A stretch of DNA of 64,000 nt from Candidatus Multivoradales bacterium (GTDB taxonomy: Bacteria > Acidobacteriota > Thermoanaerobaculia > Multivoradales > J023), in contig CBDFLE010000005.1 in NCBI GenBank assembly GCA_965248925.1, forward strand, positions 2,208,001 through 2,272,000. Reading direction: 5' to 3'. Within the stretch, counting starts at the first letter, position 1; each line of letters begins with the position of its first letter. The position numbers were made by a program, and so were the translations under genes. The notes beneath the pieces are model-generated. The model worked only from the letters and a program-made list of their open reading frames with translations, searched no databases and was not told the origin of the DNA. Below are positions 35,919 to 55,414 of this stretch, piece after piece.

Positions 35919-38900
35919 TCCCCGACCTTGCCGAAGCGTCCGAGAACATTCTCGAGCTGCCCGGCGTCGAGCTTGGCGAGTGGAAAGTCCGCTGGCGTAG
36001 GTTCAGGCCGCTCGGCCTCGCTGGCGACATCGATGAGCTTGCCGAGCTGCTTCAAGAAGCCGCCCGCGACCCGTTCCAGGGCGCCGTGATCTCCGCTTTC
36101 ACCGGCCAGGTTCCAGCTCACCGTCAGGCGACCATCGGCAACCTTGGCGGTGATCTCCAGACTGTGCGAGGGCTTCTGTAGCGGGCTCCGCTGGGGACCG
36201 GTGCTCTCGGCAGCCTGAACGAAGGAAGACTCGGCTTCGAGCACCCGATCGAGCTGCCCCAAGTAGTTGAAGAGGACCTCGGAGGGTGCTATCGCGGCGA
36301 TCCCGTGGCCGCTCTCGTCGGTCCGCAGATAGCGCAGCAGGCCGAAGCTCAAACCCCGGCGCGGCACGGATCGCAACCGCTCTCTGACCTGGCGCAAGAT
36401 CGCCATCGGTTGCCGGCAGCGACGAAGATCGAAGCTCACCGGATAGATGGTGGTGAACCAGCCGACCGTACGGGTGACGTCGATATCGTCGCCGACGTCC
36501 TCCCGGCCATGCCCCTCAAGGTCGAGTTGCACGATCCGCGAACCCATCCAGGTGGCCAAGGCTTCCAGGATCGCCGCCAGCAAGATCTCCTGGGTCTGCA
36601 CCGCCAGATCTTCCGGTAGCCCGTGCAACAGAACCTCGGTCTGCTCCGGATCGAGGCTCACCGTGGTGCTCTGGCCGGCCTCGCTATGGGTCGAAGCGCG
36701 ATGGATCCGCGGCAGCCGGCCGGCCTGACTCTGGCCCCGGCTGAGCCAAAAATCGCCATCCCCGACCAAAGCCTCCGACCCGGCGAGGGCGGTCAGCCGC
36801 TCGGCCCAGGCTTGGTAGGAAGACGAACGCGGCGGCAACCGCGCTGGCTGGCCGGCAGCGAGCTGCTGGTAGACCCGCTGCAAGTCAGCCAGCAAGATTC
36901 GCCAAGAGATACCGTCGACCGCCAGGTGATGGATGATCAGCAGCAGGCGCGAGGAACGCTCGGCGCCCAGATCGAGCCAGATCACCCGCGCTAGCGGCCC
37001 GGCACCGAGGTTCAGAGCGCGTTGGGCGCGGTCGGCGGCCGCGCTCAGCAGCTCGGCAGGAGGGTGCTGCTCGTCGACCACCGCCGACAGGTCGAGCACC
37101 GAGAACGGCGCCGCTTCCCCAGGCGGCAGGTTGTGCGCTTGCCAACCGGCGTCCTGGCGGACGAAGCGCAGCCGCAATCCGTCGTGGTGTTCGACCAGAG
37201 TATCGAACACCCGCCGCAGAATCTTCGGATCGAGGCGCTCCCGCACCTCCAACATCAGCGCTTGGTTGAAATGATCGACCTCGACCAGCTGCTGGTCGAA
37301 GAACCAATGCTGGATCGGGGTCAGCTGCACTGGCCCGCTGACCGGCCCGCGATCGGCGATCGGCGGCCCTAGACTCTCCGCAACTCGGGCCAACTCGGCG
37401 ATGTTCTGATGCAGGAAAATATGCCGGGGGGCGATCTTGAGCCCCGCCTCGTTGACCTTGGCGACGATCTGGATCGATTGGATCGAGTCGCCTCCGAGGA
37501 CAAAGAAATTGTCTTCGACACCGATCTTCTCGAGCCCCAAGACCTCCTCCCAGATGGACGTCAGCAGGTGTTCGACCGGGGTCTCGGGAGCCAGGTAGGA
37601 AGTTTCGGCGGCCAGCCTTTCCTCGGTCTTCGGCCGCGGCAGCGCTCGCCGGTCGAGCTTGCCGTTGCTGGTCAAGGGCAGCCGCTCGAGAACGACGAAT
37701 TCGGCCGGTACCATGTACGACGGCAAGCGTTCGCCGAGACCCTGCCGCAGCTCCTCGAGACGCAGCTCTTGGTCCGCCGCGGCGACCAAGTAGGCGACCA
37801 GCCGAGCGTCCGCCGAACCCGCCTCGCGCAGCGCCATCACCGCCGCCGCCGCCACTTGCGGCTGCTCGCGCAGTAGCGCTTCGATCTCTCCTGGCTCGAT
37901 GCGGAAGCCCCGCACCTTCACCTGCTGATCGATCCGTCCCAAGTACTCGAGATCGCCATCGGCAAGCCAACGCGCCAGATCACCAGAGCGGTAGAGCCGG
38001 GCGCCGGAGCCGCCACCGAGAGCATCTGGCACGAAGCGGCTGGCGGTCAGCGCGCCACGGCCCAGGTAGCCTAGCGCCACTCCAGCGCCACCCACCACCA
38101 GCTCACCGCCAACCCCCTGGGGTACCGGGTGGCCGCGGCGATCGAGTAAGAAGATCCGTAGATCCGCCAGCGGCCGTCCGACATTGCTGCCGAACCCGGC
38201 GCTGATCTCAGCGGCGCTGATCCGGTGAAAGGTCGAGTGGACGGTGGTTTCGGTGATGCCGTACATGTTGATCAACCGCGGCGAGCTGTCGCCATGGCGA
38301 TCCAGCCACCCCCTGAGGGTCGAGGGGTCGAGGGCCTCGCCGGCAAAAACGACGTAGCGCAGGGTGTGCTGGACGGCTCGGTCGAGGGTCGACTCCGCCG
38401 AGATCAGCTGCCGGAACGCCGACGGCGTCTGGCTCAGCACGGTCACCCCCTCGGTCTGCAGCAGCTCGAGAAAACGATCCGGTGATCGGCTCACCCAATA
38501 GGGCACAACGACCAGACGGCCACCGTGCAGCAGTGCCCCCCAGATCTCCCACACCGACACATCGAAAGCGTAGGAGTGGAACAAGGTCCAGACATCCTCA
38601 GCAGCGAAACCGAAGTGCTGTTGGCTGGAGCGCAGCAGGCGGAGCACCTGATCATGGGCCACCACCACCCCTTTCGGCACACCGGTTGATCCGGAGGTGT
38701 AGATCACATAGGCGGCATGCCCCGGATCGCCCGTCACCCAGGCGGGCACGGTGGGCGGATTCGGCCCGGTCGCGGCGTCGATCTCGATCACCTGGCCAGC
38801 CAAAGGCGGCAGGCGATCGCGCAGCGAAGAAGAGGTCAGCAATAGGGAGCAAGCGCTGTCTTCGGCGAGGAAGCGCAGCCGTTCCGCTGGCACCTCGGGA

Positions 38901-41900
38901 TCGATCGGCACGTAGACCGCGGCGCAGCGCAGGGTCGCCAGAATGGCCACCACCAGCAGCGCGTCGCGCTCCAGGAAGAGGCCCACCGACTGTCCCGGAC
39001 GCACCCCGTAGGCCCACAGCCGGCCAGCCAGCTCAGCGGCCTGATCGCGCAGCTCCAGGTAGGTCAGCTGGACTTCCCCGGCATTCACCGCGATGGCTTG
39101 CGGCTGCAGCTCGACGGTGGTGGCAAAAGCTTCCCACAGGCCACCCTCGAATTCGAAGGTCACTCCCTGGCCACTCCATTCCACCACCAGCTCCTGCCGC
39201 TCCGCCTCGCTGAGCAGCGACAGCGTGGTCAAAGCCCGATCCGGCTCAGCCACCGCTGCTGCCAGCAGCTGCTCCAGCTGCCCCACCCAGCGGGCGATGG
39301 TCGAGCGGTCGAACAAGTCGGTGGCGTATTGCAGATCGCCGACCACACCGGCGGCAGTTTCCTGCAGGCCCAAAGTCAGGTCGAACTTGGCGCTCTGACT
39401 GTCGATCTGCAGCCCCTTGATCACCAGCTCCGCCACCTCGAGCTCAACCCCAGGCACGTTCTGGAAAGCGAACATGGTCTGGAAGAGTGGCGAGTAGGCC
39501 AGATCCCGCACCAGCTGCAGCTCGTCCACCAATCTCTCGAAGGGCAGGTCTTGATGGGCGTCGGCCGCCAGCGCGGTCTCGCGGGCCGCCGTCAGGGCCT
39601 CGCCGAAGCTCAGCTGATCACCGAATCGGCCGCGCAGCACGAGGGTGTTGACAAACAGGCCGATCAAGCCTTCGACCTCCAACCGGCGGCGGCCGGCGAT
39701 CGGCGTTCCTAGCAGGATGTCGTCTTGCCCACTGAGTCTGAAGAGCAGGGTTTGGAAGGCGGTCAGCAACACCATGAATGGGGTCGCGCCATGGCTCCTA
39801 CCAAGCTCGCGGGCAGCTTCCGAGAGCGCCTTGGGCAGCCGCACCGGATAGGAGCCGCCAGCGAAACTCCAGCTTGCCGGACGCGGCCGATCGAGCGGCA
39901 GGTCGAGCAGTGCCGGCGCTCCGGCAAGCTCGCTCCGCCAATACTCCAGCTGGCGTTCGAGCACCGCTCCCGACAGCCACTGCCGCTGCCAGACGGCGAA
40001 GTCGGCATATTGAATCGGCAGCGCCGGCAGGATCGCCGCGCGACCAGCCACCGCCGCCTCATAGAGCTTGGCGACCTCGTCGATCAGGATCGAAACCGAC
40101 CAACCATCAGCGGCGATGTGGTGAATCGTCGCCACCACCCAATGCTGGGTAGCACCGAGGCGGAGGATCTGCAGCCGCAGCAGAGGAGCCCGGCTCAAGT
40201 CGTAGGGCCGGCGGTTGAGCTGCTCGCTGTGGCGCCGCGCCGCCGCCGATCGCTGCGGCTCGCTCAAGGCCGACAGATCGATCAACGGCAAGTCCAGCGG
40301 TAGCGCCGCTTCGACCACTTGCACCGCCCCACCACCACCCAGGGCGAAGCGGGTGCGCAGCGTCTCATGGCGCTGGCGCAACTGGTTGATCGCCTGGCGC
40401 AAGGCCCGCGGGTCGAGAGCGCCCTCGAGCTCGAGAGCGAAGGGAATGTTGTAGGCCGAGCTCTGCGGATCGAGCTGCTGGATGAACCACATCCGCTGCT
40501 GGGCGAAGGACAGAGCCAGCCCTGCGCCTCGCTCCACCGGCTGCAGCGGCACCGCCGGCGGCTCCTCCCCCGCCACCCGGGCCATCGCCACCCGGCGAGC
40601 AAAGCCGGCCAGGGTCGAGTCCTCGAAGATCGCCCGCAGCTCGAGCTCGACGCCAAGCACCTTGCGCAGTCGCGACAAAACGCGGGTGGCCAGCAGCGAG
40701 TGTCCGCCCAAGGCGAAAAAATCATCCTGCCGGCCAATCTCGCCCAGCGCCAGCACCTCGCTCCAGATACCGCTCACCAGATCTTCTACAAAGCCGCCAC
40801 CAGCCCAGCCACCGGTAGCCGCCGTGCTCGGCGCTGCCAGCTCGAGCGCCGCCAAAGCCGCGCGGTCGATCTTGCCGTTGGCGTTCAGCGGCAGTCGTTC
40901 GAGCACCGTCACGACGCTCGGCACCATCGCCTCCGGCAGGCTTGCCGCCACCCGCTTGCGGAGCTCTTCGGCGCTGACCTGAGCGTCGTTGGCCAGCACC
41001 ACAAAGGCCATCAGGCTCAGCGAGCCGCCGACCTCCGGCCTGGCGATGGTGACGGCGGTCACGACCTCCGGCTGGCGCTGCAAGACCGCGTCGACCTCGC
41101 CAGGCTCGATACGCTGGCCGCGTACCTTGACCTGGAAATCGACCCGGCCCAAGAAGTCCAAATTGCCGTCGCCGCAATACTTCACCAGATCACCGGTGCG
41201 ATAGAGGCGCTGGCCCTCCCCATAGGGGTCGGGAATGAAGACCTCGGCGGTCCTGCCGGGCTGCGCCAGATAGCCGCGGCCAACTCCGACACCACTGGCG
41301 AAGAGCTCGCCGACGACGCCGACCGGCAAGCGGCGGAGCTGCCGATCGAGCACCGAGAGGTCGATGTTGGCTATCGGTCGGCCCACCACTATGCGTTCGA
41401 CTCGGCAATCGTCGATCTTCCGCACAAAGGTCTGGGAGATATTGTCGGAGCACTCGGCCGGCCCGTAGGCATTGATGATCGGAATCCGCGGATATCGCCG
41501 CAGCCAGCGCCGGCACAGCTCAGGGGCGATCGCCTCGCCACTCGACATCAACCATTCGAGGGCGGTGAGTCGCGGCGCCTTGGATCCGGCGCCATCGAGC
41601 TCCTCCAACGCATAGCGCAAGAAGGACGGCACCACTTCCAGAATCGTCACCCCGCGTTGCTCGATCGCGCCCAGCAGACGTGACGGGTCGAAGGCCAGCC
41701 GGTCGTCGAAGATCTCGGTTCGCCCACCCGCCAAGATCGCCGCCAGCAGCTGCCAGACCGAGACGTCGAAGGTCTGGGCGGCGCTCTGCGCCACCACCGT
41801 GGACGGACTGAATCGGTAGTCACAGATCTTCGCCCACACCTGGTTGAGCAAGCCGCGATGGTCGAGCATCGCCGCCTTGGGCAGGCCGGTGGAACCGGAA

Positions 41901-44900
41901 GTAAAGAGCACGTAGGCCAGCTGGCTGGGGTCGATGGGCCTGGCCGGCGGCGACCAGCGCTGCGCGGCCACCAGCTCGTCCAGCACCAGCACCGCGGTGT
42001 CGAGTTGGGGCGAGCTCCGCACCGCCTCGGCGAGCTCGGCCCGCCGATCATCGATCAACAGCACGGCGACTCGACTGCGCTCCACCAGTCCGAGCAGGCG
42101 CGGTGTCGGCTGCTTCGGCCCGAGAGGAAGATAGACCGCACCGGCCTTGAGAATGCCGACCAACGCCACCAGGTATGCCGACCGGCGGCGGGCGCAGAGC
42201 GCGACGGGCATCTCCCTCTCGACCCCCTGCTCAACCAGCGTCCAAGCCACCGCGTTGGAGCATCGATCCAGCTCGCGGTAGGTCAGACGGGTGCTGCCAT
42301 CGGCGACCGCGATCGCCGACGGGGTCTGATCGACATGGCTGGCGAATAGCTCCAGGATGGTGCCGGCAAAGCCTGTTTCGACCTCGGTCGCATTCCACTC
42401 GACCGCCAGCTGATGACGCTCCGCCGGGCTGAGCAGCGGCAGGGCGGAAACCGCGGTCGTCGGGCTGGCGACGATGCCGCGCAGCAAGCTGCCCAGGTGC
42501 CCCCACAAGCGCTCGATGGTGGTGTGATCAAAGAGGTCGGAGCTGTACTGCACGGCGGCGACCAACCCGCCCTGTTTCTCGGCCATCGAGATGGCCAGAT
42601 CCAGTTTCGCCGTGTCGGTTCGCAAGACCACCTCGTGGAGCTCCACCGCGGGCAGATCGAAGCGTTCGAAACTGGCTTCGTGCGCAAGCTCGAACATCAC
42701 CTGGAAGAGAGGCGTGCGGCTCAGATCGCGCCGCGGCAGCAGCTCTTCGATCAGCCGCTCGAAAGGTAGATCCTGATAGGTGTGAGCGTCGAGCGCGGTG
42801 CGGCGAACTTGCAAGAGCAGCTCGTCGAAGCCAGGATCGCCGGCGAAACGGCCGCGCATCACCAGCGTGTTGACGAACAGACCGATCAACGACTCACTCT
42901 CGAGATGCTGACGCCCGGCGATCGGCACGCCGACACAGAGGTCGGTCTGGCCGGTGTAGCGATGGAGCAAGGTCTCGAAGGCCGCCAGCAGCAGCATGAA
43001 AGCGGTCACTCCTTGCTGCCGCGCCAGCTGCAGCAACTCCGCCGACAACGCCGGCGGCAGGGAGACTCGCCGGGTCACGCCTCGATCACTGAGCGCTCTC
43101 GGGCGCGGCCGATCGGTGGGTAGATCGAGCCTTGCGCCGGCGCCGTCGAGCTGGGCGAGCCAGTAGCCGAGCTGCGCTTCGAGACGGGCCCCGGAGAGCA
43201 GCTCGCGCTGCCAGTCGGCGAAGTCGGAATAGCTCATCCGCAACGGTGGCAGGGCGACCGGCTCAGCTTGCGCCAGGGCCCGATAGAACGCCGCCAGCTC
43301 ACGGATCAGGATGCCCATCGACCAGGCATCAGAAACCGCGTGATGGCAGTTCAGCAAAGCCTGGTAACGCTCCTCGCCAAGACGGAACAACAGCGCTCGA
43401 GCGGCCGGCTCAGCGCCGAGATCGAACGGCCGCGCACTCTCCCGTTGCAACCAGCTGTGCGCTTCTAGCTCGGCGTCGGCAGGGCGCAATGCCTGCAAGT
43501 CGACCAGCGGCATGCGCAGGCCATCGGCGCCGGCTTGTTGCCAGATCTCACCGTCTATCTGCACTAACCGAGCGGCCAAGACCTGATGCCGCTCAGCCAG
43601 CTGACGCAGGCTCTCCGCCAGCACTGCAACTTCCAGCCGACCCTCAAATGCCACCGCCACCGGGGTGTTGTACGAAGCACTCTCCGGCTCCAGCTGTTGC
43701 AGCAACCACATCCGCTCCTGGGCAAAGGAAGCCCGCCGCCGGCCGCCGACTGCGGCTTTGCCGAGAGCCATCGGCGGCAACGGCGGCAACGGCGCGGTTC
43801 GCTCGAGCCTTCGCACCAGCTCGGCCACGGTCGGTGCTTCGAACAGATCGCGGACCTCGACCGCCGCATCGCAAGCCCGCCGCACTCGCGAGATGATCCG
43901 GGTAGCCAGCAGCGAATGACCGCCGTGGTCGAAGAAGTCGTCGTGAATCCCCAGGCTGTCGACCCGCAGAACTCCTCGCCAGATGTCCAGCACCTGTTCT
44001 TCGAGCAGGCTCCTGGGGGCCGCCGCGGTCGATGGCGCCGCCGCCCCCGAGTCCTCTACCCCTGCCAATGCCACCAGGGCTTGGCGGTCGATCTTGCCGC
44101 CGACAGTCCGCGGCAAGATGTCCAGGAATACCACTTCGGTCGGCACCAAAGCCGGCGGCAAGCGCTCCTCGAGATGCTCGCGGACCTCTTTGGCGGTCAG
44201 CTCGCCAACGCCGCGTGGCTCGGCCAGCAGGCGGGGGGCAGCATCCGGGAAGAGCCGGCGGTAGAACTCCGAGCGTCCCAGGCCAGGCCGGCGGAAAGGC
44301 GAATCCAGCTCGATCGGCAGCGGCTCCGAGCCAGGCCGGGCGAGATGCCCGCGCAGCCGATAGTCCGGGTGGATGCCATCGGCTTCGAGAACCGCGGTGA
44401 TGGTCAGCTCGAAAGTGTCACCCGCCTCTAGCTCAAGGCTCTCGGCGGCGGGAATGAACACCGGCAGCCAGGAATGCTCGTGACGCAGGCTGTCGATCAC
44501 CAGACACTCGGCAGTCTCTAGCTCGATCCAAGCGAGGAAACCATCGCAGCGGCCAGCGTGCTCGACCTTCAAAATCGTGCGGCGCTCGAACTCGGCGGAA
44601 AAATCGCTCTGGAAATCGAGCTCTTCAAAGATCCCGGGCGCCGACAGCAGATATTCGCTCGGCAAGTGGCGAAGACACAGCCGGAGGTCGAAGGGATAGC
44701 CAATCTCGGCAAAGACCCGCTCGACGTAATGCACCGCGGTGGCTACGAATCCGGGCTGGCGACGGACCGCCTCAGGCAACGACACGGCAGCGATTCGCGT
44801 CACACAGCGCCGTGGGACAAAGATCCCGCCAGGCGCCATCAGCCGGCGGGCCTGGCGCAACAGCACGGCGGCTCCTTCAGAGCCCCCGAGAGTGCCGATC

Positions 44901-47900
44901 AGGTTGGAGACACAGACCTCCACTTTCTCGGCCAGATCGACCTGGCTGATATCGCCGTGAATGACCTCGACGATATCCTGCAAGCCTTCGCTGGCAATGC
45001 GCTGGCGAGCATGATCGGCAGCCTCTTCGACAATCTCCAGGGCATAGACCCGGCGAGCGCCGGCCGCCGCGCAGTAGCGTGCCCAGATCGCTTCGTGGCC
45101 GGTACCCACGTCGAGCACTACCTTGCCCGCCACGGTGGCCTGGATGGCACGGCGGTAGAGCTGGTTGCGACGCTCGTCCTTGACCATCGAGTAATAGAGC
45201 AGTTCCTCGTAGATCTGGTATTCACCGACGCAGGGCCAGATCTCGACCTGCTGGCTGCCAACCGCGGCGTCGGCAGTCGATCCACGAGTGGCGACATAGG
45301 CCACCAGCGTCTTGTCGGCGCCGCTGCCGCGGGCGACCACCGCGGCCCCCTCGATGGCGGGATGCTCGGTCAGCCGGGCCTCGATCTCACCCGGCTCAAT
45401 ACGCACTCCGCGCACCTTGATCTGCTGGTCGGCGCGGCCCAAGTACTCCAGCCGACCGTCGGCCAGCCGGCGCCCCCGGTCACCGGTCCGGTAGAGCCGG
45501 CCACCGGCACGCGGCGACCACGGGTCGGGAACGAAGCGCTCGGCGGTTAAGGCAGCGCGACCCTGGTAGCCCCGCGCCAAGCTCGGACCGGCGACGTAGA
45601 GTTCACCAGCCGCCGCCACCGGCAACGACTCCAACCCGCCATCCAACACCGACAAGCGCAGATTGCCCAACGGCCGGCCGATCGGCACGATTTGCCCCGT
45701 CCCGGCCTGGCCCCGGCGACAGCGGTTGTGACTGGCGTCGATCGCCGTCTCGGTCGGGCCATAGAGGTTGATCAGCTCCGCGTCCAGCAGTGACTCGAAG
45801 CGCCCACGCAGCGCCTCCGGCAGCGCTTCTCCACCGCTGAAGACCCGCCGCAGGCTGCCGCACGAAGCCGCCCCGACCTCCTCCAACCAGACCTGCAGCT
45901 GCGACGGAACGAGCTGCAGCACACTCACCCCGCGCTCCTCGATCAGCTGCCGCAAGTAAGCCATGTCCCGATGGCCACCGTCTCGCGCCAGCTCGATCGA
46001 GGCGCCGGCCACCAGCGGCGTCAGCAGCTCCCACAGCGAGGCGTCAAAAGACAGCGGGGTCTTCTGCAAGACCCGGTCAGCAGCCGCCAGCGGATACTCC
46101 GACTGCATCCACAACACCCGGTTGGCGATCGCCCGATGCGACACCATCACTCCCTTCGGACGGCCGGTCGAGCCCGAGGTGTAGATCACGTAGGCCAGCT
46201 GATCTGCCGCCACCGCCACCGCGGGGGCCGCCCGCTGGTGCCGCCCGGCAACCGCCTGGTGAAGCTCTATGACCGGCAGGTCGCCGCTCAGTCCGGCGGT
46301 TTGTGGTCGCGTCGTCCAGGCCGGGTCGACCAGCAGCAGCGAGGCGCCGCTGTCCTCGATCAGGTAGCTCAGTCGCGCCGCCGGATAGTCTGGATCCAGC
46401 GGCACCACGGTGCCACCGCCGCTCAAGATGGCCAGCAGGCCGACCACCATCTCCGGCGAGCGGACGCTGGACAATCCCACCCTGGTTTCCGCCACCATGC
46501 CCCGCGAGCGCAATAAGCTCGACAGCTGATCGACCCGCGACCACAGCTCGGCGTAACTCCACGACACGGCACCCTGCGCTACTGCCTGAAGGCTGCCGCA
46601 ATCAGCGCGCCGAGCGAGCAGCGGGCCGAGCAGCGAGTCAGCGCCGTAGGGCACCGCAGTATCATTCCAATCCCACAGCAGCTGGTGCCGCTGCCCGCGG
46701 TTCAACACCGGCAGCTGGTCGAGCCTCGAGTCGGGGTGCCGCAACACCGCCTGCAAAACGCGATCGAAATGGTCAAGCAAGCGCTGGATCGTCGTGCGGT
46801 CGAAGAGATCCGGGTTGAACACCGCCCCGGCGCGGAAGCGGCCTTCGGCCTGGTCGAGAGTCACGGTCAGGTCGAACTTCGACCCGGCGCCACCGAGTTC
46901 CAGGCGCTGCAACTCGATGCCGGCCAGCCGCAACGACTGGCCGTGCGGTGGTTGCAGGTCGAAACCGACCTGGAACAGGGGTGAATGACTCAGGCTGCGC
47001 GATGGGCGCAGTTCCTCGACCAGCTTCTCGAAGGGCACGTCCTGATGGGCGTGAGCGTCGAGCACCACCTCCCTTAAACGGTCGAGCAGCTGGCTAAATG
47101 GCAGCCGCTCGGCCAGCTCAGTGCGCAGCACCAGGGTGTTGACCAGGAAGCCAATCAGCCCTTCGGTCTCGAGCTGATGGCGATTGGCCACTGCCGTACC
47201 GACACTCAGATCGGTCTGCCCGGTGTAGCGCCACAGCACCGTCTTGAAAACCGCTAGCAAGATCATGTAAGGGGTCACGCTGCTGCTCGCCGCCAGCTTC
47301 TGCACCGCTGCCGTATCGCTGCTGATCAGCCGCGTCAAGACAGCGCCGCGGAAGGTCTGCACCGCCGGCCGCGGCCGATCGGTTGGCAGCTCGAGTAGCT
47401 CGGGCAAGCCAGCCAGCTGCTGGCGCCAATACCCCAGGCGCTCCTCGAGTATCTCCCCCGCCAACCAGCCGCGCTGCCAGATGGCGTAGTCGCCATATTG
47501 GATCGGCAGCTCGGCCAAGGCCGCCGGCCGCCCCCCTGCGAAGGCGGCGTAGAACTCGCTCAGCTCGCGGATCAAAACTCCCATCGACCAACCATCGGCG
47601 ACGATGTGGTGGAGGGAGAAGAGCACCACATGGCGTGCCTCCCCCAGACGCAGCAGCTGGGCACGAATCAACGGTCCGCGGCCGAGATCGAAGGGAGTCG
47701 CCGCTTCCAATCGGCCGCGGCGGCGCACCTCGGCGTCAGCGACGGTCGCCGACAGCTGCGCGAGATCCACTAGCGGAAGGTCGAAGGGAACCGCTGGCAG
47801 CACTTGCTGCCGAGGTTCCCCGTGACGGTCGGGGAACACCGTCCGCAGCGACTCATGGCGCCCGACCACCGCGCTCAGCGCCGCCACCACCAGCGCCGGG

Positions 47901-50900
47901 TCGAGCTGCCCTTCGAGGGCCAGGGCGGTCATCGAGTTATAGGCCGTATTTCCCGGCTTCAACCGATCGAGGAACCACAGTCGCTGCTGGGCAAAGGACA
48001 GTGGAATATCCTCCGCCGTGGAGCTCGCCTGGGCGCGGGGCTCGATCGGCGGCAAGACTTCGCCGCCGGTCTGCAGCAGTTCCTCAACCACCCCGGCCAG
48101 GCCCTCGACCGTGGGCTCTTCGAACAGCCTGCGCAACGGCAGCTCGACATGAAAGCCTCGGCGCACTCGGGAAACCAGCTGGGTGGCCAGCAGGGAATGG
48201 CCGCCGATCTCGAAAAAGCTGTCGTCGACGCTGACCTGATCGACCCCAAGGATGTCGCACCACATCGACACCATGAGTTCCTCGAAGGGTGTTCGTGGCG
48301 CGATTACCCGACGCGAGCCCTGCTGCTCTTCGGGGGCCGGCAGCGAACTCCAATCAATCTTGCCGCGCCGGTCGAGGGGCAGAAACGGCAGCGGAACGAT
48401 CGCCGACGGCAGCATAAAGTCTGGCAACCGTTGGGCCAGGAAGGCGCGCAGTTGGTCGGCTTCGAGCACCGCCGCGGCATCTTCCGGCAGGGCCGCCATC
48501 GCCAGCTCAGCAAGTCGCTCACCGGCGGGACCGACGATGCCGGGCCGCGAGGCGTAGAGATTGTAGCGATCGGTGCCAGTCAGCAGCTGGTCTTGTTCTA
48601 CCACCACCTCGAAGCCGTGCCCGGAGAGCAGCTCTCGCAGCTCCTCGACGCGCCCCGAGGTTGCCTCGTCAGGGGCGTCGTGGACCTCCATCACAACTTG
48701 CTGGACCTTGTCCCAATCGGCTTCGTCGAGGCCGGCCAGCACATCCATCTCCGCCCGCTGCACGTCGATCTTCAGCAGGTCAATGCGGTCGATTCCCTGC
48801 TCGCTAATAACCTCGCTCAGACGGCGCAGCCGGACGCTGTGCCGCTCTTCCCGGAAGCGACCGGCGAGAAGTTCATCCGCCTGCTCCAACAGCTCCCCCG
48901 CGGCGGCCTCCCCCTGCTCCAGCTCATTGCTGAGAAAGCGCTTGATCACCTCCACCTCACCCTCTGGGTTGGCGTAGTCGGCCGACCCCGACATCATCGT
49001 GTAGCGGGGGTAGAAGGTGAAGGTCTCGGAGCACTCGGAAGCCGACAAGCCGTACTCGAAGAGCCGCGTGCCACTCGCGTGGCGGGCGACATTGCGTCGC
49101 AGGCTGAGATAGATCGGCGGCAGGGGCTCGAAAGCGAAGATTCGCGCCGTCGGACAGGCGCGGCTGACGAACAGGGTGAACATGCCGATGTTGGCCCCGA
49201 TGTCGAAGACGCAGGCGTTCTCCGGCAGGGTAATGCCATGCAAGGTGTAACAGCGGTTGGCGAAGATCTCCTGATAGAGGTAGTCGGTTTCGTTACGGTT
49301 CTGATGCGCCACCACCAGGCCATTGGGCAAGGTGTGGAGGTCGGGATCGTCGGCAGCGGTCGAGGCGCCGGCAACATAGGCCACCAGGCGCGGATCGTCG
49401 GCGCGATCGTGGCGCAGCTGCACCGCGGATTCGGAGATCGCCGGGTGCTGGCGGAGCACTGACTCGATCTCGCCAAGCTCGATGCGGAAACCGCGCAACT
49501 TGATCTGCCGGTCGACCCGACCGAGAAACTCGAGTTCGCCGTCTTCGCCGTGACACACCCGGTCACCGGAGCGGTACAGCCGGCTGCCTGGTGCCGCCGC
49601 GAAAGGATCGGGGACGAAGCGCTCGGCGGTCAAGGCCGGCCGGCCGAGGTAGCCCCGCGCGACACCAGCTCCGGCAATGGCGAGTTCTCCGTCAATGCCC
49701 TGGTGGGTAAGCCGACTGCGGCGATCGAGCACATAAACCTGGATGTTGGCCAGCGGCCGCCCTAGGCTCGGTCCCGAGGGTCGCGCCGCCACCTCACGCA
49801 AGGTCGAATCGACCGTACACTCGGTCGGACCATAGACGTTGAAGACGCGCAGCCGCGGCAGATTCACCAGCTGCCCCCAGAGCCCGGCATCGATCCCCTC
49901 GCCGCCGAGCAACACCTTCGCCAACGGCAGCTCTGCTTGGTCCAGGCCCGCCGCCAACAACAGGCGAAGCTGCCCTGGGGTAGCGTCCAAGAGATCAATT
50001 TGCTGGTCTGTGAGTAGCCGCAGCAGCGCTTCACCGTCCGGCCGCACAGCCTGCGGGATGATGCATAGGGTGTCGCCCCAGGCCAACCGCACAAGCTGCT
50101 TGATCGAAGCATCGAAGGACAGCGGCGCGTTGAGGCTGATCCGCAGCGTCCCGGTGCGATCGGCATAAACCGCCTGTTCGAGGGCGTAGGTCAGATTGGT
50201 GACACTTGAGTGGCGCACCATGGTGCCCTTGGGCCGCCCGGTCGAGCCAGAGGTGAAGAGGACGTAGGCGAGCTGCTCAGCGGCGGTCGAGAGCGTCGGC
50301 GAAATCGCTGAACAGGCAGCGATCAGCTGCTGGTCGCGCCGCAGGTCGACCGCTTGATCGGCCGCCACCAACTCGGCCCCCGCCCCCCCCTCGAGGATCA
50401 CCAGCCGTGGCTCGATATCGGCCAGCATCTGCCGCAGTCTCTCGACCGGTTGATCTGCATCCAGCGGCACGAAGGCGGCACCGGCTTCGTGCACCGCCAA
50501 AAGGGCGATGATCTGGTCGACTCCACGCTCCAGCAGCAGCACGATGCGGTCTTCGCGCCGCACCCCGCGACGCAGCAGGTGGTGAGCGAGCCGGTGGGCG
50601 CGTTCGCTGACCACCCCGTAGCTGATCTCAACCCGACCGTCGAGCACCGCGACCACCTCGGGAAACTGCTCGGCCCGCTGGCGAAAGAGTTCGTGCAGAG
50701 GAAGTTGTGGAAACTCGCTGGCGGTCTGGTTCCAGCTTGCCACCAAGCGCTGGCGCTCAGCGCTCGGCAAGCCATCGATCCGTTCGATGGGCAGGCTTGG
50801 GGTGGCGGCCACTTCGGTCAGAATCTTGAGCAGCGAGTCGACTATCCGCTCGACCACCCGGCGGGGAAATCTGCCACCGTCATAGCTCAGTCGTAGATCG

Positions 50901-52042
50901 ACTACCGGCCCACTCCGGACACCGCCGAGCAGCAGCTTGAAGCTCTCGCTCAGTCCGCGGGCGCAGCCGATCCCAGCCATGGCACCGCCATCTTGCGGCT
51001 CGTCAAACTCAAAACCGAAGCCAAAACCGGACTCGCCCTCCGCCGCGCTCGGCGGCGGGCCGGCGAAATACTCCATCCACTCGAAGACACCTTCACCGGC
51101 ATCTCCCAATGCCTTGGCGAAAGCCAGCAGAGAGTCCCCTGGACGGAGCGTCGCAGCGATCGGAATCGAGCGTTCGAAGAGCCCGAGAGAAGTGGCCAGA
51201 TCGTCGTATTTTCGACCATCCAACAACCAGCCGAGCACCAGCTCGGTATCTCCCGACAGCCGCCAAAGCAAGGTTCTCCAGGCGGCCAGCAGGAGGGCGC
51301 TCCATTCGAGCTGGCGGTCTTCGAGCTGGCGATCGAGAACCGCGACCAAGTGCCGATCGAGCTGCCGGGTGACGCTTTCCAACTCCGCCGCGGGCGCCGC
51401 AACTTCGGTCTCGAACAGCAAGCGTGGGCCGGCCGCATCGATCTCCCGCCGCTGCTGCCAGAAGGCTTTACCCTGCTCGGCTTCTTCACCTTGCAGAAGC
51501 TCGTTGTGCCACTCGGCGAAGTCGGCATACTGCAAAATCTCGTCGGCGTCCTCGGTGGCGCCTTGGCCGGCGGCCAGGAGGAGCAGGATTTCGTTCGCCA
51601 ACAAACGCAGGCTGTAGCGATCGAGGCACATCAGAGGGGCGGTCAGGATCAGCGTCGAGGCGGCCGGTGAGCGATCGAACCACCCCGCCCGCAAGCCACT
51701 GCCGGAATCCTCCTGGCGGACCGCTTGGCGTTCGCTGAGCAGTAGCGCCGCTAGCTCTGGCGGCTTCTCGGAATCGAATTCGAGCCGTTCGAGGCACGGC
51801 GGGCGAGCGTCATCGATGACCTGCAGCGGCACGCTGACCCCGGCCGGCGCCTTGAACGAGGTGCGAAGGATCTCGTAGCGCTCGACCAAGGTGCCCAGCA
51901 CCTCTTGCAGGCCCTCAAAACTGACCCCAGGGTCAAGCTCGAGAGAGATCTGCGACCACCTGACGCCGGCCGAGCGCTGCCACTTCCAGAGCCTCTCCTG
52001 GAGCGGTGACAGGTGAAATCCTTCAACTACTTTCGTCGTCAT
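35915..52042 (-). CDS. Four-module NRPS (5375 aa): I-A(Glu)[FkbM MT]-T-C-A(Gln)[PRMT-like MT]-T-C-A(Dab-like)-T-C-A(Thr-family variant)-T-E
   Basis: The N-terminal C-like domain lacks HHxxxDG (PLMCLDRYS instead). Codes: DAKDLGVVDK, DAWQFGLIDK, DVWEMSADNK, DVWSVAMVHK. FkbM motifs VFDIGANIGMF and LLKIDVQRAE; second MT motif VVLDVGTG; terminal E motif HHLAVDGISW. The ATG lies 6 nt after the upstream TAG, with a GAGGAG RBS. Confidence 0.96.
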   Translation of the reverse strand: MTTKVVEGFHLSPLQERLWKWQRSAGVRWSQISLELDPGVSFEGLQEVLGTLVERYEILRTSFKAPAGVSVPLQVIDDARPPCLERLEFDSEKPPELAALLLSERQAVRQEDSGSGLRAGWFDRSPAASTLILTAPLMCLDRYSLRLLANEILLLLAAGQGATEDADEILQYADFAEWHNELLQGEEAEQGKAFWQQRREIDAAGPRLLFETEVAAPAAELESVTRQLDRHLVAVLDRQLEDRQLEWSALLLAAWRTLLWRLSGDTELVLGWLLDGRKYDDLATSLGLFERSIPIAATLRPGDSLLAFAKALGDAGEGVFEWMEYFAGPPPSAAEGESGFGFGFEFDEPQDGGAMAGIGCARGLSESFKLLLGGVRSGPVVDLRLSYDGGRFPRRVVERIVDSLLKILTEVAATPSLPIERIDGLPSAERQRLVASWNQTASEFPQLPLHELFRQRAEQFPEVVAVLDGRVEISYGVVSERAHRLAHHLLRRGVRREDRIVLLLERGVDQIIALLAVHEAGAAFVPLDADQPVERLRQMLADIEPRLVILEGGAGAELVAADQAVDLRRDQQLIAACSAISPTLSTAAEQLAYVLFTSGSTGRPKGTMVRHSSVTNLTYALEQAVYADRTGTLRISLNAPLSFDASIKQLVRLAWGDTLCIIPQAVRPDGEALLRLLTDQQIDLLDATPGQLRLLLAAGLDQAELPLAKVLLGGEGIDAGLWGQLVNLPRLRVFNVYGPTECTVDSTLREVAARPSGPSLGRPLANIQVYVLDRRSRLTHQGIDGELAIAGAGVARGYLGRPALTAERFVPDPFAAAPGSRLYRSGDRVCHGEDGELEFLGRVDRQIKLRGFRIELGEIESVLRQHPAISESAVQLRHDRADDPRLVAYVAGASTAADDPDLHTLPNGLVVAHQNRNETDYLYQEIFANRCYTLHGITLPENACVFDIGANIGMFTLFVSRACPTARIFAFEPLPPIYLSLRRNVARHASGTRLFEYGLSASECSETFTFYPRYTMMSGSADYANPEGEVEVIKRFLSNELEQGEAAAGELLEQADELLAGRFREERHSVRLRRLSEVISEQGIDRIDLLKIDVQRAEMDVLAGLDEADWDKVQQVVMEVHDAPDEATSGRVEELRELLSGHGFEVVVEQDQLLTGTDRYNLYASRPGIVGPAGERLAELAMAALPEDAAAVLEADQLRAFLAQRLPDFMLPSAIVPLPFLPLDRRGKIDWSSLPAPEEQQGSRRVIAPRTPFEELMVSMWCDILGVDQVSVDDSFFEIGGHSLLATQLVSRVRRGFHVELPLRRLFEEPTVEGLAGVVEELLQTGGEVLPPIEPRAQASSTAEDIPLSFAQQRLWFLDRLKPGNTAYNSMTALALEGQLDPALVVAALSAVVGRHESLRTVFPDRHGEPRQQVLPAVPFDLPLVDLAQLSATVADAEVRRRGRLEAATPFDLGRGPLIRAQLLRLGEARHVVLFSLHHIVADGWSMGVLIRELSEFYAAFAGGRPAALAELPIQYGDYAIWQRGWLAGEILEERLGYWRQQLAGLPELLELPTDRPRPAVQTFRGAVLTRLISSDTAAVQKLAASSSVTPYMILLAVFKTVLWRYTGQTDLSVGTAVANRHQLETEGLIGFLVNTLVLRTELAERLPFSQLLDRLREVVLDAHAHQDVPFEKLVEELRPSRSLSHSPLFQVGFDLQPPHGQSLRLAGIELQRLELGGAGSKFDLTVTLDQAEGRFRAGAVFNPDLFDRTTIQRLLDHFDRVLQAVLRHPDSRLDQLPVLNRGQRHQLLWDWNDTAVPYGADSLLGPLLARRADCGSLQAVAQGAVSWSYAELWSRVDQLSSLLRSRGMVAETRVGLSSVRSPEMVVGLLAILSGGGTVVPLDPDYPAARLSYLIEDSGASLLLVDPAWTTRPQTAGLSGDLPVIELHQAVAGRHQRAAPAVAVAADQLAYVIYTSGSTGRPKGVMVSHRAIANRVLWMQSEYPLAAADRVLQKTPLSFDASLWELLTPLVAGASIELARDGGHRDMAYLRQLIEERGVSVLQLVPSQLQVWLEEVGAASCGSLRRVFSGGEALPEALRGRFESLLDAELINLYGPTETAIDASHNRCRRGQAGTGQIVPIGRPLGNLRLSVLDGGLESLPVAAAGELYVAGPSLARGYQGRAALTAERFVPDPWSPRAGGRLYRTGDRGRRLADGRLEYLGRADQQIKVRGVRIEPGEIEARLTEHPAIEGAAVVARGSGADKTLVAYVATRGSTADAAVGSQQVEIWPCVGEYQIYEELLYYSMVKDERRNQLYRRAIQATVAGKVVLDVGTGHEAIWARYCAAAGARRVYALEIVEEAADHARQRIASEGLQDIVEVIHGDISQVDLAEKVEVCVSNLIGTLGGSEGAAVLLRQARRLMAPGGIFVPRRCVTRIAAVSLPEAVRRQPGFVATAVHYVERVFAEIGYPFDLRLCLRHLPSEYLLSAPGIFEELDFQSDFSAEFERRTILKVEHAGRCDGFLAWIELETAECLVIDSLRHEHSWLPVFIPAAESLELEAGDTFELTITAVLEADGIHPDYRLRGHLARPGSEPLPIELDSPFRRPGLGRSEFYRRLFPDAAPRLLAEPRGVGELTAKEVREHLEERLPPALVPTEVVFLDILPRTVGGKIDRQALVALAGVEDSGAAAPSTAAAPRSLLEEQVLDIWRGVLRVDSLGIHDDFFDHGGHSLLATRIISRVRRACDAAVEVRDLFEAPTVAELVRRLERTAPLPPLPPMALGKAAVGGRRRASFAQERMWLLQQLEPESASYNTPVAVAFEGRLEVAVLAESLRQLAERHQVLAARLVQIDGEIWQQAGADGLRMPLVDLQALRPADAELEAHSWLQRESARPFDLGAEPAARALLFRLGEERYQALLNCHHAVSDAWSMGILIRELAAFYRALAQAEPVALPPLRMSYSDFADWQRELLSGARLEAQLGYWLAQLDGAGARLDLPTDRPRPRALSDRGVTRRVSLPPALSAELLQLARQQGVTAFMLLLAAFETLLHRYTGQTDLCVGVPIAGRQHLESESLIGLFVNTLVMRGRFAGDPGFDELLLQVRRTALDAHTYQDLPFERLIEELLPRRDLSRTPLFQVMFELAHEASFERFDLPAVELHEVVLRTDTAKLDLAISMAEKQGGLVAAVQYSSDLFDHTTIERLWGHLGSLLRGIVASPTTAVSALPLLSPAERHQLAVEWNATEVETGFAGTILELFASHVDQTPSAIAVADGSTRLTYRELDRCSNAVAWTLVEQGVEREMPVALCARRRSAYLVALVGILKAGAVYLPLGPKQPTPRLLGLVERSRVAVLLIDDRRAELAEAVRSSPQLDTAVLVLDELVAAQRWSPPARPIDPSQLAYVLFTSGSTGLPKAAMLDHRGLLNQVWAKICDYRFSPSTVVAQSAAQTFDVSVWQLLAAILAGGRTEIFDDRLAFDPSRLLGAIEQRGVTILEVVPSFLRYALEELDGAGSKAPRLTALEWLMSSGEAIAPELCRRWLRRYPRIPIINAYGPAECSDNISQTFVRKIDDCRVERIVVGRPIANIDLSVLDRQLRRLPVGVVGELFASGVGVGRGYLAQPGRTAEVFIPDPYGEGQRLYRTGDLVKYCGDGNLDFLGRVDFQVKVRGQRIEPGEVDAVLQRQPEVVTAVTIARPEVGGSLSLMAFVVLANDAQVSAEELRKRVAASLPEAMVPSVVTVLERLPLNANGKIDRAALAALELAAPSTAATGGWAGGGFVEDLVSGIWSEVLALGEIGRQDDFFALGGHSLLATRVLSRLRKVLGVELELRAIFEDSTLAGFARRVAMARVAGEEPPAVPLQPVERGAGLALSFAQQRMWFIQQLDPQSSAYNIPFALELEGALDPRALRQAINQLRQRHETLRTRFALGGGGAVQVVEAALPLDLPLIDLSALSEPQRSAAARRHSEQLNRRPYDLSRAPLLRLQILRLGATQHWVVATIHHIAADGWSVSILIDEVAKLYEAAVAGRAAILPALPIQYADFAVWQRQWLSGAVLERQLEYWRSELAGAPALLDLPLDRPRPASWSFAGGSYPVRLPKALSEAARELGRSHGATPFMVLLTAFQTLLFRLSGQDDILLGTPIAGRRRLEVEGLIGLFVNTLVLRGRFGDQLSFGEALTAARETALAADAHQDLPFERLVDELQLVRDLAYSPLFQTMFAFQNVPGVELEVAELVIKGLQIDSQSAKFDLTLGLQETAAGVVGDLQYATDLFDRSTIARWVGQLEQLLAAAVAEPDRALTTLSLLSEAERQELVVEWSGQGVTFEFEGGLWEAFATTVELQPQAIAVNAGEVQLTYLELRDQAAELAGRLWAYGVRPGQSVGLFLERDALLVVAILATLRCAAVYVPIDPEVPAERLRFLAEDSACSLLLTSSSLRDRLPPLAGQVIEIDAATGPNPPTVPAWVTGDPGHAAYVIYTSGSTGVPKGVVVAHDQVLRLLRSSQQHFGFAAEDVWTLFHSYAFDVSVWEIWGALLHGGRLVVVPYWVSRSPDRFLELLQTEGVTVLSQTPSAFRQLISAESTLDRAVQHTLRYVVFAGEALDPSTLRGWLDRHGDSSPRLINMYGITETTVHSTFHRISAAEISAGFGSNVGRPLADLRIFLLDRRGHPVPQGVGGELVVGGAGVALGYLGRGALTASRFVPDALGGGSGARLYRSGDLARWLADGDLEYLGRIDQQVKVRGFRIEPGEIEALLREQPQVAAAAVMALREAGSADARLVAYLVAAADQELRLEELRQGLGERLPSYMVPAEFVVLERLPLTSNGKLDRRALPRPKTEERLAAETSYLAPETPVEHLLTSIWEEVLGLEKIGVEDNFFVLGGDSIQSIQIVAKVNEAGLKIAPRHIFLHQNIAELARVAESLGPPIADRGPVSGPVQLTPIQHWFFDQQLVEVDHFNQALMLEVRERLDPKILRRVFDTLVEHHDGLRLRFVRQDAGWQAHNLPPGEAAPFSVLDLSAVVDEQHPPAELLSAAADRAQRALNLGAGPLARVIWLDLGAERSSRLLLIIHHLAVDGISWRILLADLQRVYQQLAAGQPARLPPRSSSYQAWAERLTALAGSEALVGDGDFWLSRGQSQAGRLPRIHRASTHSEAGQSTTVSLDPEQTEVLLHGLPEDLAVQTQEILLAAILEALATWMGSRIVQLDLEGHGREDVGDDIDVTRTVGWFTTIYPVSFDLRRCRQPMAILRQVRERLRSVPRRGLSFGLLRYLRTDESGHGIAAIAPSEVLFNYLGQLDRVLEAESSFVQAAESTGPQRSPLQKPSHSLEITAKVADGRLTVSWNLAGESGDHGALERVAGGFLKQLGKLIDVASEAERPEPTPADFPLAKLDAGQLENVLGRFGKVGE
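35990..37330 (-). other. C-terminal epimerization domain
   Basis: LTPIQHWF, HHLAVDGISWRIL, LEGHGRE, RTVGWFT, FNYLGQ and a TPADFPLA tail. The next gene starts with a DCL-type C domain (EDIYPLSP). Confidence 0.92.
44230..45250 (-). other. PRMT-like SAM methyltransferase interrupting a Gln A domain (between A8 and A9)
   Basis: WPCVGEY...YSMVKDERRNQLYRRAI...VVLDVGTG...VYALE...VCVSNLIGTLGGSEG...CDGFLAW...SWLPVFIP. This resembles the PRMT Rossmann plus beta-barrel layout. Confidence 0.7.
48550..49340 (-). other. FkbM-family methyltransferase interrupting a Glu A domain
   Basis: LPNG...ETDYLYQEIF...VFDIGANIGMF...FAFEP...LLKIDVQRAE...QVVMEVH. Confidence 0.85.
50760..52042 (-). other. Interface-type pseudo-condensation domain
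   Basis: EGFHLSPLQ start, catalytic His motif replaced (TAPLMCLDRYS), QYADFAEW retained. The upstream gene supplies a terminal, intact C domain. Confidence 0.72.
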
Positions 52043-55000: not shown

Positions 55001-55414
55001 AAGATCCTCGGCAGAGGCTGCTTGCAGATTCTTGATCAGGCCCTGACGCAGGTCGCCATCCAGCAGCCAAGAATGAGGCCGCGCCTGGGTGCACATCGCT
55101 CGCAAGCGGGACGGCGCCGTGGCCGGGTCGATCGGCATGAAAGCACATCCGGCTCGCAGTGCCGCCAGCAGGCCGACGATCAAGCGATCCGGCCGAGTGG
55201 TCAGCAGGGCCAGCAGATCCCCCGCCTGGGCGCCGCCGGCGTGCAACTCGTCGGCCAGTCGTGCCGAACGCCGCTCCAGCTCAGCGTAGCTCGTCACCAC
55301 CCCCTCGAGGTCGATCGCCGGCTCGTCCGGATAGCGCCGCGCCGACTCGAGGAAAAGCTGGTGAACGAACCCAGATGCCAGCCGAGGGTCGCTAGATGCT
55401 AGGCCGCCGATCAT
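52049..55414 (-). CDS. Split-module NRPS A-T-C (about 1121 aa), A domain of the DxRH-code (acidic/iso-linking-like) type
   Basis: A3 TSGSTGQPKA, A5 YGPSETTMTK, T GGHSL, C HHVVSDAWS, and an Arg-rich C-terminal tail. The track starts it at 55429, but the ATG at 55414 forms an ATGA overlap with the upstream stop and has GGGAGGG 6 nt upstream, so I prefer 55414. Confidence 0.93.
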   Translation of the reverse strand: MIGGLASSDPRLASGFVHQLFLESARRYPDEPAIDLEGVVTSYAELERRSARLADELHAGGAQAGDLLALLTTRPDRLIVGLLAALRAGCAFMPIDPATAPSRLRAMCTQARPHSWLLDGDLRQGLIKNLQAASAEDLRLRSWADPAIPSGSAAALLAEEHEWQGDDLCYVFMTSGSTGQPKAITGRLKAIDHFVRWEIEELRLGPGCRVSQLASPAFDACLRDIFVALAVGGTVCAPRSRATIRDARALARWLDRAQVEVLHCVPSLLRSLLGLPDRQAPALASLRYLLLAGEVLLPSDVERFVERYGERVQLVNLYGPSETTMTKLFYRVAPADGGRRFIPLGQPMPGAAVVLVDTANRACPQATVGEILIRTPYRSLGYLHDQELTQQVFVQNPFTDQPADIVYRTGDLARRHADGALEFVGRRDQQLKIRGVRVELGEVENVLRGCRGVVDVALVEVLDAVGFNALRAYLVLAEGVSTEAVRDHLLLHLDPVMVPSSWVELDLLPRTVSGKIDRRALLASAPRDAASVAPRTATEEILHGLWCELLGRQEVGVEANFFALGGHSLLATQMLVRLQSLFDLEVSLAEFFRAQTLAELAERVDQATRNPGGGRPVPLRQVPRDRPLALSFAQQRLWVLHWMEPASAAYNIPSAVRLRGPLRLPILHAAIRHTVARHEVLRTSFDREEPLQIIHSTVEMRCPMIDLSALSTLAGSEREAGRAAAQEARWPFDLERAPLLRVTLVKLAGDDHQVLFTLHHVVSDAWSIEQLVAEVAELYQAFADGQPAPLAELPLQYADYAAWQRQTLQGELLASNLAFWRHRLAGELPLLAVPTDRPRPAVASQLGGRVCQSLPPALVVELRRLSRRSGTTLFMTLLAAFEVLLYRLTGQRDLIVGTAVAGREHAAIQGLVGCFINMLPVRIEVDGAASFSHLLGSVREQTMAALSHQSLPFDRLVEELRPPRQPGVTPIFQVAFGLRNAPLEKRLIDDLELLLVERQRDLVRYDLTLWISDRGDGLAATWSYARDLFDRSTIESWQARYQTLLSSLCGDPEQSLDAVEWLSQSERQRQRLERQQRKAVNSRRLRKIRRRKVVAAARSESQTDPAVGEGALQSPDRSPEE

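Follow-up and report, generated by a model that had tools for sequence, protein, structure and literature searches.

The analysed window is a 64,000-nucleotide stretch of a Candidatus Multivoradales bacterium genome (contig CBDFLE010000005.1, positions 2,208,001 to 2,272,000 of the forward strand), almost wholly occupied by nonribosomal peptide synthetase (NRPS) genes on the minus strand. Here, we report that the second adenylation (A) domain of one of these genes, orfD, has a glutamine specificity code and is split by an embedded domain predicted, from its sequence and a structure model, to be an S-adenosylmethionine (SAM)-dependent methyltransferase (M) of the protein arginine methyltransferase (PRMT) fold. 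Judged by its relatives, this insert belongs, as a divergent member, to the type III family of embedded M domains rather than standing alone as a PRMT. Most likely it methylates the side chain of the carrier-bound Gln; methylation on the side-chain amide nitrogen is the version that we favour, tentatively and short of calling it probable.

The domain layout of orfD (Pfam and motif scan) is a His-less condensation (C)-like domain, A(FkbM/type II M insert)-T, C-A(PRMT-fold insert)-T, C-A-T, and C-A-T-E, where T is thiolation and E epimerization; the final Condensation-family domain carries E-type motifs (His-motif and FNYLG scan). The gene, its module 2, and the landmarks of the insert are as follows.

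35915 to 52042, minus strand: NRPS gene orfD, 5375 amino acids (aa) (open reading frame [ORF] list and translation)
46676 to 48013, minus strand: module 2 Condensation domain, residues 1344 to 1789 (Pfam; HHIVADG, His motif at residue 1478)
45278 to 46585, minus strand: N-terminal part of the host A domain, motifs A1 to A8, residues 1820 to 2255 (Pfam AMP-binding at 1820 to 2159)
44207 to 45265, minus strand: PRMT-fold methyltransferase insert, residues 2260 to 2612, about 353 aa (phmmer, AlphaFold2, Foldseek)
45215 to 45217, minus strand: codon for Gln17 of the insert (residue 2276, within WPCVGEYQIY), a position that co-varies with the host code
45098 to 45118, minus strand: SAM motif I VLDVGTG, residue 2309, followed by HEA, giving the GxGxxA form
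44873 to 44908, minus strand: equivalent of the PRMT double-E loop, SNLIGTLGGSEG, residue 2379 (HMMER alignment to PRMT chains)
44456 to 44482, minus strand: HEHSWLPVF of the insert, its Trp invariant (W266 in the 24-row family alignment, with P268)
44075 to 44206, minus strand: C-terminal portion of the host A domain, with A9 (LPPALVP) at residue 2628 and A10 (GGKIDRQAL, bearing the code Lys) at residue 2648
43805 to 43999, minus strand: module 2 thiolation domain, FFDHGGHSLLATR (Pfam PP-binding and translation), the presumed carrier of the substrate

The methyltransferase lies between A8 and A9 of the module 2 A domain. A8 (GRADQQIKVRGVRIEPGEIE) starts at residue 2202, the A/M boundary LVAYVAT closes the N-terminal part (translation check), and AMP-binding_C profile positions 38 to 76 are matched at residues 2611 to 2650, the insert splitting the profile at 37/38. 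The host specificity code, mapped by eye on FDASLWE, VLQLVPS, VFSGGEA, and NLYGPTETAID, is DAWQFGLID plus the K of A10; DAWQFGLIDK is the Gln code of tyrocidine synthetase according to two papers. The first-pass annotation had described, for 43810 to 46680 (residues ~1788 to 2744 of orfD, holding its second A domain), a PRMT-like insert of ~340 aa between A8 and A9 of a Gln-coded rather than Arg-coded A domain. Apart from the slightly longer insert, this description holds: all of its motifs are present on the minus strand, and the code is that of Gln.

Within the insert, the N-terminal motif MVKDERRNQLYRRAI is found at residue 2286 and DGFLAW at residue 2500. The HEHSWLPVF region, which reads HSW, we tentatively take to be the counterpart of the PRMT THW loop; the PDB sequence alignments end before this region. 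Of the two Glu with which the PRMT double-E loop holds the guanidinium, only one is present. SNLIGTLGGSEG aligns to SEWMGyxLxxES, and because HMMER sets vSNLIGt against iSEWMGy, the first Glu is replaced by Asn (codon 44903 to 44905), as had been noticed on first pass; the second Glu is retained. Residues G54, T55, G56, E77, G104, S120, E130, and W266 (insert numbering) are invariant in the 24-row family alignment, and the domain looks active.

A phmmer search of PDB sequences gave plant PRMT10/4.2, PRMT6, and CARM1 as best matches (E values, 3e-17 to 1e-12), and the top rows among the matches listed were almost all PRMTs (92 matches at E ≤ 1). The AlphaFold2 model, built on the 24-row family alignment, had a mean predicted local distance difference test score of 92.4. 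Searched against the PDB with Foldseek, it returned type I PRMTs first (CARM1, PRMT6, and PRMT1; E value, ~1e-24; template modelling score, 0.66 to 0.71). Because these alignments span 330 to 345 columns (identity, 21 to 24%), the match takes in the Rossmann half as well as the beta-barrel half. The structure 5WMM, that of TioS(A4aM4A4b) and the structural reference for the usual backbone N-methyltransferases of NRPSs, is absent from the best 60 of the 92 PDB sequence matches. Sequence and structure searches thus both bear out the earlier view that the insert is PRMT-like.

What that annotation overlooked is a large and already categorised family of embedded M domains. An exhaustive HMMER search with the insert (1.84 billion representatives) matched 6096 proteins at E ≤ 0.001; 583 cluster representatives reached E ≤ 1e-30. 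The 150 best relatives were full-length matches of 37 to 58% identity, most of them long NRPS proteins. Lundy et al. 2020 (PMC8341866), in its accessible text, sorts the M domains that interrupt A domains into types I to VI. Type III, Ms(O,Tyr,a8-a9) of family 2b, is described there by a GxGxxA SAM motif without the third Gly and an A/M boundary L(V/A/I)(A/G)(Y/F)xxx, and its members are presumed to O-methylate Tyr (PMC8341866 and the available part of PMC10127204). According to the latter, the LynB3 A domain carries, beside a separate backbone N-methyltransferase, an embedded presumed O-methyltransferase that is assigned to the side chain of Tyr and has ~30% similarity to arginine methyltransferases. 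A term search of the main text of PMC8341866 gave no arginine, PRMT, glutamine, Gln, or FkbM. The orfD insert shares the a8-a9 site (A8 at 2202, insert at 2260 to 2612, A9 at 2628), the boundary (LVAYVAT), and the SAM motif (VLDVGTGHEA) of type III, and it gives full-length matches to inserts of hosts with Tyr-like codes (39 to 50% identity); its host is coded for Gln and not for Tyr.

Two free-standing ORFs in the source genome (G000; 322 and 387 aa) weakly match the insert and may be stand-alone PRMT-like methyltransferases.

G000:C6:4096428-4096868 (L002): weak match, 38% over insert residues 15 to 160
G000:C6:784391-785203 (L003): weak match, 30% over insert residues 24 to 295

Host codes and loop residues were surveyed in 331 proteins with 334 inserts, pooled from homologue searches. 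Codes were read by alignment to the module 2 A domain as mapped here, together with the two loop positions; 263 hosts were readable, the other 71 being N-terminally cut fragments or lacking the A3 pattern used. The commonest codes were DASTVAAVC (31 hosts), DASTIAAVC (28), DACDIGIIG (14), DAWQFGLID (10), and DGTITAEVM (8), and all named cyanobacterial proteins in the family had DASTIAAVC. DAST-type codes are presumably Tyr codes. By a grouping made here, 111 of the 263 readable hosts are Tyr-like and 152 are not, and the family is therefore much wider than "Tyr O-methyltransferase". Codes of the D[IA][FLW]H type occurred in 30 hosts, and Glu stood at code position 239 in 46. For the non-Tyr-like codes (DACDIGIIG, D[IA][FLW]H, and Glu-239), the literature gave no link to a product.

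The two loop positions read E,E in 303 of the 334 inserts, N,E in 8, Q,E in 6, and other pairs in 17, which puts the orfD insert among a small minority. With one further insert (L013), the N type counts nine, on hosts coded DAWQFGLID (five), DVWNLGMID, DVMNFGIIN (by eye), DALYLGMVF, and DPYYLGVAW; the Q type is found on DAQDIALVD (two), DGQDLALVD, DPQNIAIIN (by eye), DVENIGAIT, and DACDIGIVG. Some of these group together: one clade with a neutral first loop residue (Q or N) has hosts DAQDIALVD and DGQDLALVD and, by eye, DPQNIAIIN and DVMNFGIIN, and P0190 (N, DVWNLGMID) pairs with P0191 (Q, DVENIGAIT). The related code DAQDLGVVDK has been reported to recognise Glu as well as Gln. With a relaxed definition of Gln type and as raw counts, 10 of 14 N or Q inserts sit on Gln-type hosts, compared with 7 of 242 E inserts.

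Insert position 17 follows the host code more widely. The residue there is F, Y, or L for 109 of the 111 Tyr-like hosts and P or G for 35 of the 46 whose code has Glu at position 239; all 10 DAWQFGLID hosts, which are drawn from two groups, have Q. Recognition of the amide is therefore suggested for the Gln-coded hosts. This position belongs to the N-terminal helix, which covers the active site in PRMTs. The tracking of the host side chain by residues at position 17 suggests that the pocket reads that side chain.

Trees built with FastTree (all 334 inserts, loop column removed) and with IQ-TREE (quick tree, 70 rows) were in agreement. The orfD insert groups with P0003, P0151, P0004, P0152, and P0318 (the member from genome G176), to which the IQ-TREE subset adds L013 (genome G607); this Asn clade is supported at 98 (six rows, FastTree) and by a Shimodaira-Hasegawa-like approximate likelihood ratio (SH-aLRT) of 99 (seven rows, IQ-TREE). 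Five of the seven hosts have the code DAWQFGLID. Residues C12, Q17, W61, Y64, and N121 are specific to the clade. Identity among its members is 48 to 57%, at which SNLIGT, WPxVGEYQ, and AIWARY are strictly retained; this points to selection on function. The sister group (89/91) comprises 16 inserts on hosts of the DVEE[IL]GV[VI]T type, whose codes are acidic at positions 239 and 278, which would point to basic substrates; if the codes are so read, these hosts would offer their inserts only nitrogen acceptors.

Occurrence of the family among relatives of the source organism is patchy: of 401 genomes sampled from the phylum, 5 had it (E ≤ 1e-60), and of 300 in the order, 18 (E ≤ 1e-50), the source genome being counted in both. 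Among genomes of the source organism's relatives, only G176 and G607 had Asn-type inserts; the G607 member lies on a contig of 5262 bases without gene context. Pattern scans of genome and metagenome contigs matched 53 and 75 stretches, respectively, and confirmed no relative. The G176 gene, from a genome of the same order as the source organism, encodes a three-module protein without a thioesterase, and the host code of its insert is DPYYLGVAW.

G176:C17:67593-83645 (L008 to L010), plus strand: NRPS of 5351 aa, C-A-T, C/E, C-A-T, C-A(M, Asn type)-T, C, TauD, end

Six other Gln-coded hosts, P0254 and its relatives, form a second group (support, 97 to 100) that keeps E,E and has Asn at the next loop position; Asn one residue after the first loop position is confined to this group (7 of 334 inserts). 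The Gln-coded A domain of P0254 holds two tandem insert copies with intact motifs and 59% mutual identity. Two methyls on one residue would fit an NH2 acceptor. P0254 itself (3856 aa, metagenome) is a hybrid of ketosynthase, aminotransferase, luciferase-like monooxygenase, C, and A domains; in the region of residues 2130 to 3760, each insert copy is followed by its own A9/A10-like stretch, and a T and a sulfotransferase domain come next. Two independent origins of the Gln-hosted groups were considered and dropped, since an approximately unbiased (AU) test did not reject a single origin (P = 0.50); convergence is therefore not claimed.

The rest of the assembly line supplies the setting in which the insert would act.

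48503 to 49345, minus strand: FkbM-family insert of orfD module 1, between A8 and A9 (TIGR01444, E value 5.9e-31; Pfam Methyltransf_21)
55411 to 61194, minus strand: orfB, the gene upstream of orfD, with an A domain coded DAWQFGLID
57175 to 58482, minus strand: TioS-type backbone N-methyltransferase insert of orfB (top PDB match 5WMM, E value 3.6e-49)
61191 to 62282, minus strand: stand-alone TauD/TfdA-family iron/2-oxoglutarate dioxygenase, part of the operon-like gene row, between orfA and orfB (Pfam TauD, E value 1.6e-49; PDB relatives), a candidate beta-hydroxylase
L032:967-2220 and L032:3-1094, minus strand: two further TauD ORFs, outside the window, after the last NRPS gene, which ends in a thioesterase

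The code DAWQFGLID thus occurs with a PRMT-fold insert in orfD and with a TioS-type insert in orfB, and a third A domain so coded, whose A3 lies at residue 4257 of orfE, is uninterrupted. That one code is met in three states makes it likely that the PRMT-fold insert has a role of its own. In the module 1 insert of orfD, the SAM motif takes the type II form DIGANIG (KtzH-like, Ser/Thr O-methyltransferase), and the host code is DAKDLGVVD, which we take to be a Glu code; the outcome may be an acidic residue with a beta-methoxy group or with its side chain methylated as an ester. A PDB sequence search with this insert gave no match. NCBIfam had no model above its cut-off for the PRMT-fold insert or for the TauD protein. 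The module before the window's TauD gene is Gly-like (DILQLGLVW), and assignment of the TauD target by gene order was rejected for that reason.

Both orfB and orfD begin with a C-like domain lacking HHxxxDG (59845 to 61194 and 50693 to 52042, respectively, both minus strand). The corresponding stretches read APLMCLDRYS and LPAMAADSIG, and the two domains share 31% identity (E value, 2e-39). Each of the two genes follows one whose protein ends in a C domain with HHxxxDA, giving tandem C-like pairs. MacB/FtsX and ABC transporter genes lie near the TauD ORFs of the cluster. At one end, orfF (window 1 to 18534, minus strand) runs on for 4855 aa (L032:5436-20000), reaching ~11,033 aa, with a thioesterase at its end; at the other, orfA extends upstream to window-equivalent position 70536 and is preceded by an ORF of ~5800 aa. 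The assembly line is estimated from ORF lengths at ~28 modules. Large plus-strand ORFs (3249, 2747, and 3614 aa) begin ~10 kb further upstream.

Under the favoured reading, the host A domain would activate L-Gln and load it onto the module 2 T domain, and the embedded domain would methylate the side chain of the tethered Gln, most likely on the carboxamide nitrogen, to give N5-methyl-Gln before the next condensation. Asn for the first double-E Glu, together with Gln17, would mark a pocket adapted to a neutral amide in place of a charged or phenolic acceptor. What a review says of interrupted A domains suggests the tethered residue as substrate; the side chain as target and the amide nitrogen as acceptor atom we infer. 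This chemistry had been proposed on first pass, and the proposal gains from the sister relation to inserts of acidic-pocket hosts, from the N or Q loop residues on Gln-type hosts, and from position 17. Also in its favour is the separate type II (KtzH-like) insert on another module, of the type documented for an aliphatic hydroxyl, that of Ser. A wider version is possible and a little less firmly held: that PRMT-fold M domains embedded in A domains are side-chain methyltransferases whose pocket has been adapted, at position 17 and where the double-E loop begins, to the amino acid selected by the host, so that Gln lineages would methylate the amide nitrogen, once or, with a duplicated insert, twice, and acidic-pocket lineages would methylate basic side chains.

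Several observations pull the other way, and they temper the first-pass proposal. Two of the seven Asn-clade hosts are not coded for Gln (P0152, DALYLGMVF; G176, DPYYLGVAW), and if the clade has one function, an amide is perhaps not needed for it. In G176, the Asn-type module is directly followed by C-TauD at the protein end, and the three TauD genes of the window's cluster would fit hydroxyl methylation. Six Gln-coded hosts hold an insert with E,E intact, so a Gln host can do without the change from Glu to Asn. Association of neutral loop residues with Gln-type hosts comes down to four changes on the tree, at which number a test of independent pairs has no power, and the AU test does not reject one origin for the two Gln-hosted groups. 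The assignments of the other host codes to Tyr or to basic substrates are presumptive. The family's sole published link to chemistry is O-methyl-Tyr. In reviews, no M domain of an interrupted A domain N-methylates a side chain; a 2024 review gives backbone N-methylation or side-chain O- or S-methylation as their reactions. A literature search, with subscription journals and supplements outside its reach, gave neither an NRPS M domain with side-chain N-methylation nor a nonribosomal peptide with side-chain N-methyl-Gln; for methylated Gln in such peptides, only the C-methylated 3,4-dimethylglutamine turned up.

An O-methylation reading would account for part of this. If a TauD enzyme hydroxylated the T-bound residue (giving 3-hydroxy-Gln) and the insert methylated the beta-hydroxyl, a beta-methoxy residue would result irrespective of the side chain, which would explain how the Asn clade tolerates three host codes (Gln in five members, DALYLGMVF, and DPYYLGVAW). 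The G176 protein, in which the Asn-type C-A(M)-T is followed by C and a closing TauD, has the matching layout, as does the Tyr-coded P0211 with its M module and then TauD; the cluster has its own TauD gene at 61191 to 62282 and two more after the thioesterase, and the family is presumed to O-methylate on Tyr. Set against these points, Asn in place of a carboxylate that might serve as base would be odd for an aliphatic alcohol acceptor, and Q17 in 10 of 10 Gln-coded hosts from two groups speaks for recognition of the amide. The type of M domain documented for Ser O-methylation is already represented in the cluster by the KtzH-like insert. In three of the five proteins that have both TauD and an insert, TauD does not follow the M-containing module, and next to the window's TauD, where the preceding gene ends in the Gly-like DILQLGLVW module, the neighbourhood names no target. 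We regard beta-hydroxyl methylation as unlikely, though it is the leading alternative.

Backbone alpha-N-methylation by a second, unrelated type of M domain would suit the differing codes of the Asn clade, since the alpha-amine is common to all, and it is the commonest role of a8-a9 inserts. This cluster and the family's relatives, however, use a TioS-type domain for that purpose, in orfB on the identical Gln code; LynB3, in the accessible text on it, has both M types in one A domain; and co-variation of insert residues with the host side-chain code would be needless for a backbone enzyme. We consider it very improbable. The loss of a hallmark catalytic Glu leaves some room for an insert that is catalytically silent or acts elsewhere than on the aminoacyl thioester of its own module, on the upstream peptidyl chain or on the amide oxygen, to form an imidate driving a further reaction. 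SAM-binding and core residues are nevertheless conserved in the Asn clade at 48 to 57% identity, which argues for selection on function and makes this improbable too.

If methylation of the Gln carboxamide is borne out, it would be a new tailoring reaction in NRPS logic, the work of a PRMT-fold enzyme acting on an amide and not a guanidine. It would offer a portable A-M-A unit for peptide engineering and, in the change from Glu to Asn, a signature readable in genome mining. Even if the insert O-methylates a hydroxylated residue, the spread over non-Tyr hosts and the tracking at position 17 would improve structure prediction from sequence.

The closest known systems are the type III M domains, represented by the O-methyltransferases of LynB3/LynB5 (lyngbyapeptin B), with which, going by the available descriptions, the insert shares the a8-a9 site, the A/M boundary, GxGxxA (here GTGHEA), and the likeness to arginine methyltransferases. 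It differs from them in its Gln rather than Tyr host, in Asn for the first loop Glu (Glu in 303 of 334 inserts), in the clade-specific C12, Q17, W61, and Y64, and in a predicted acceptor that is not a phenol. Type I (TioS, 5WMM) and type II (KtzH) M domains share the a8-a9 insertion and occur in the same assembly line (orfB and orfD module 1, respectively), but they belong to unrelated or distantly related families. In its accessible text, PMC8341866 documents O-methylation of an aliphatic hydroxyl, that of Ser, for type II.

With the type I PRMTs (PRMT1, PRMT6, CARM1/PRMT4, and plant PRMT10), the insert has in common the two-part fold, motif I, the DERRNxxY helix at the N terminus, the second Glu of the loop, and a Trp in what we tentatively equate with the THW loop; unlike them, it is embedded in an A domain that selects Gln and not Arg, its substrate is predicted to be carrier bound, its first double-E Glu is Asn, and identity is 21 to 24%. 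PrmC/HemK and PrmB, the N5-Gln methyltransferases of release factors and ribosomal protein L3, would share its chemistry if the favoured reading, amide N-methylation, is correct. They form another branch of the class I methyltransferases, and an acceptor-site Asn (NPPY) is their hallmark. The PrmC model TIGR03534 scores 26.6 bits on the insert, over the SAM-binding part only and far below its cut-off of 199.1, so the insert would act like PrmC without belonging to its family.

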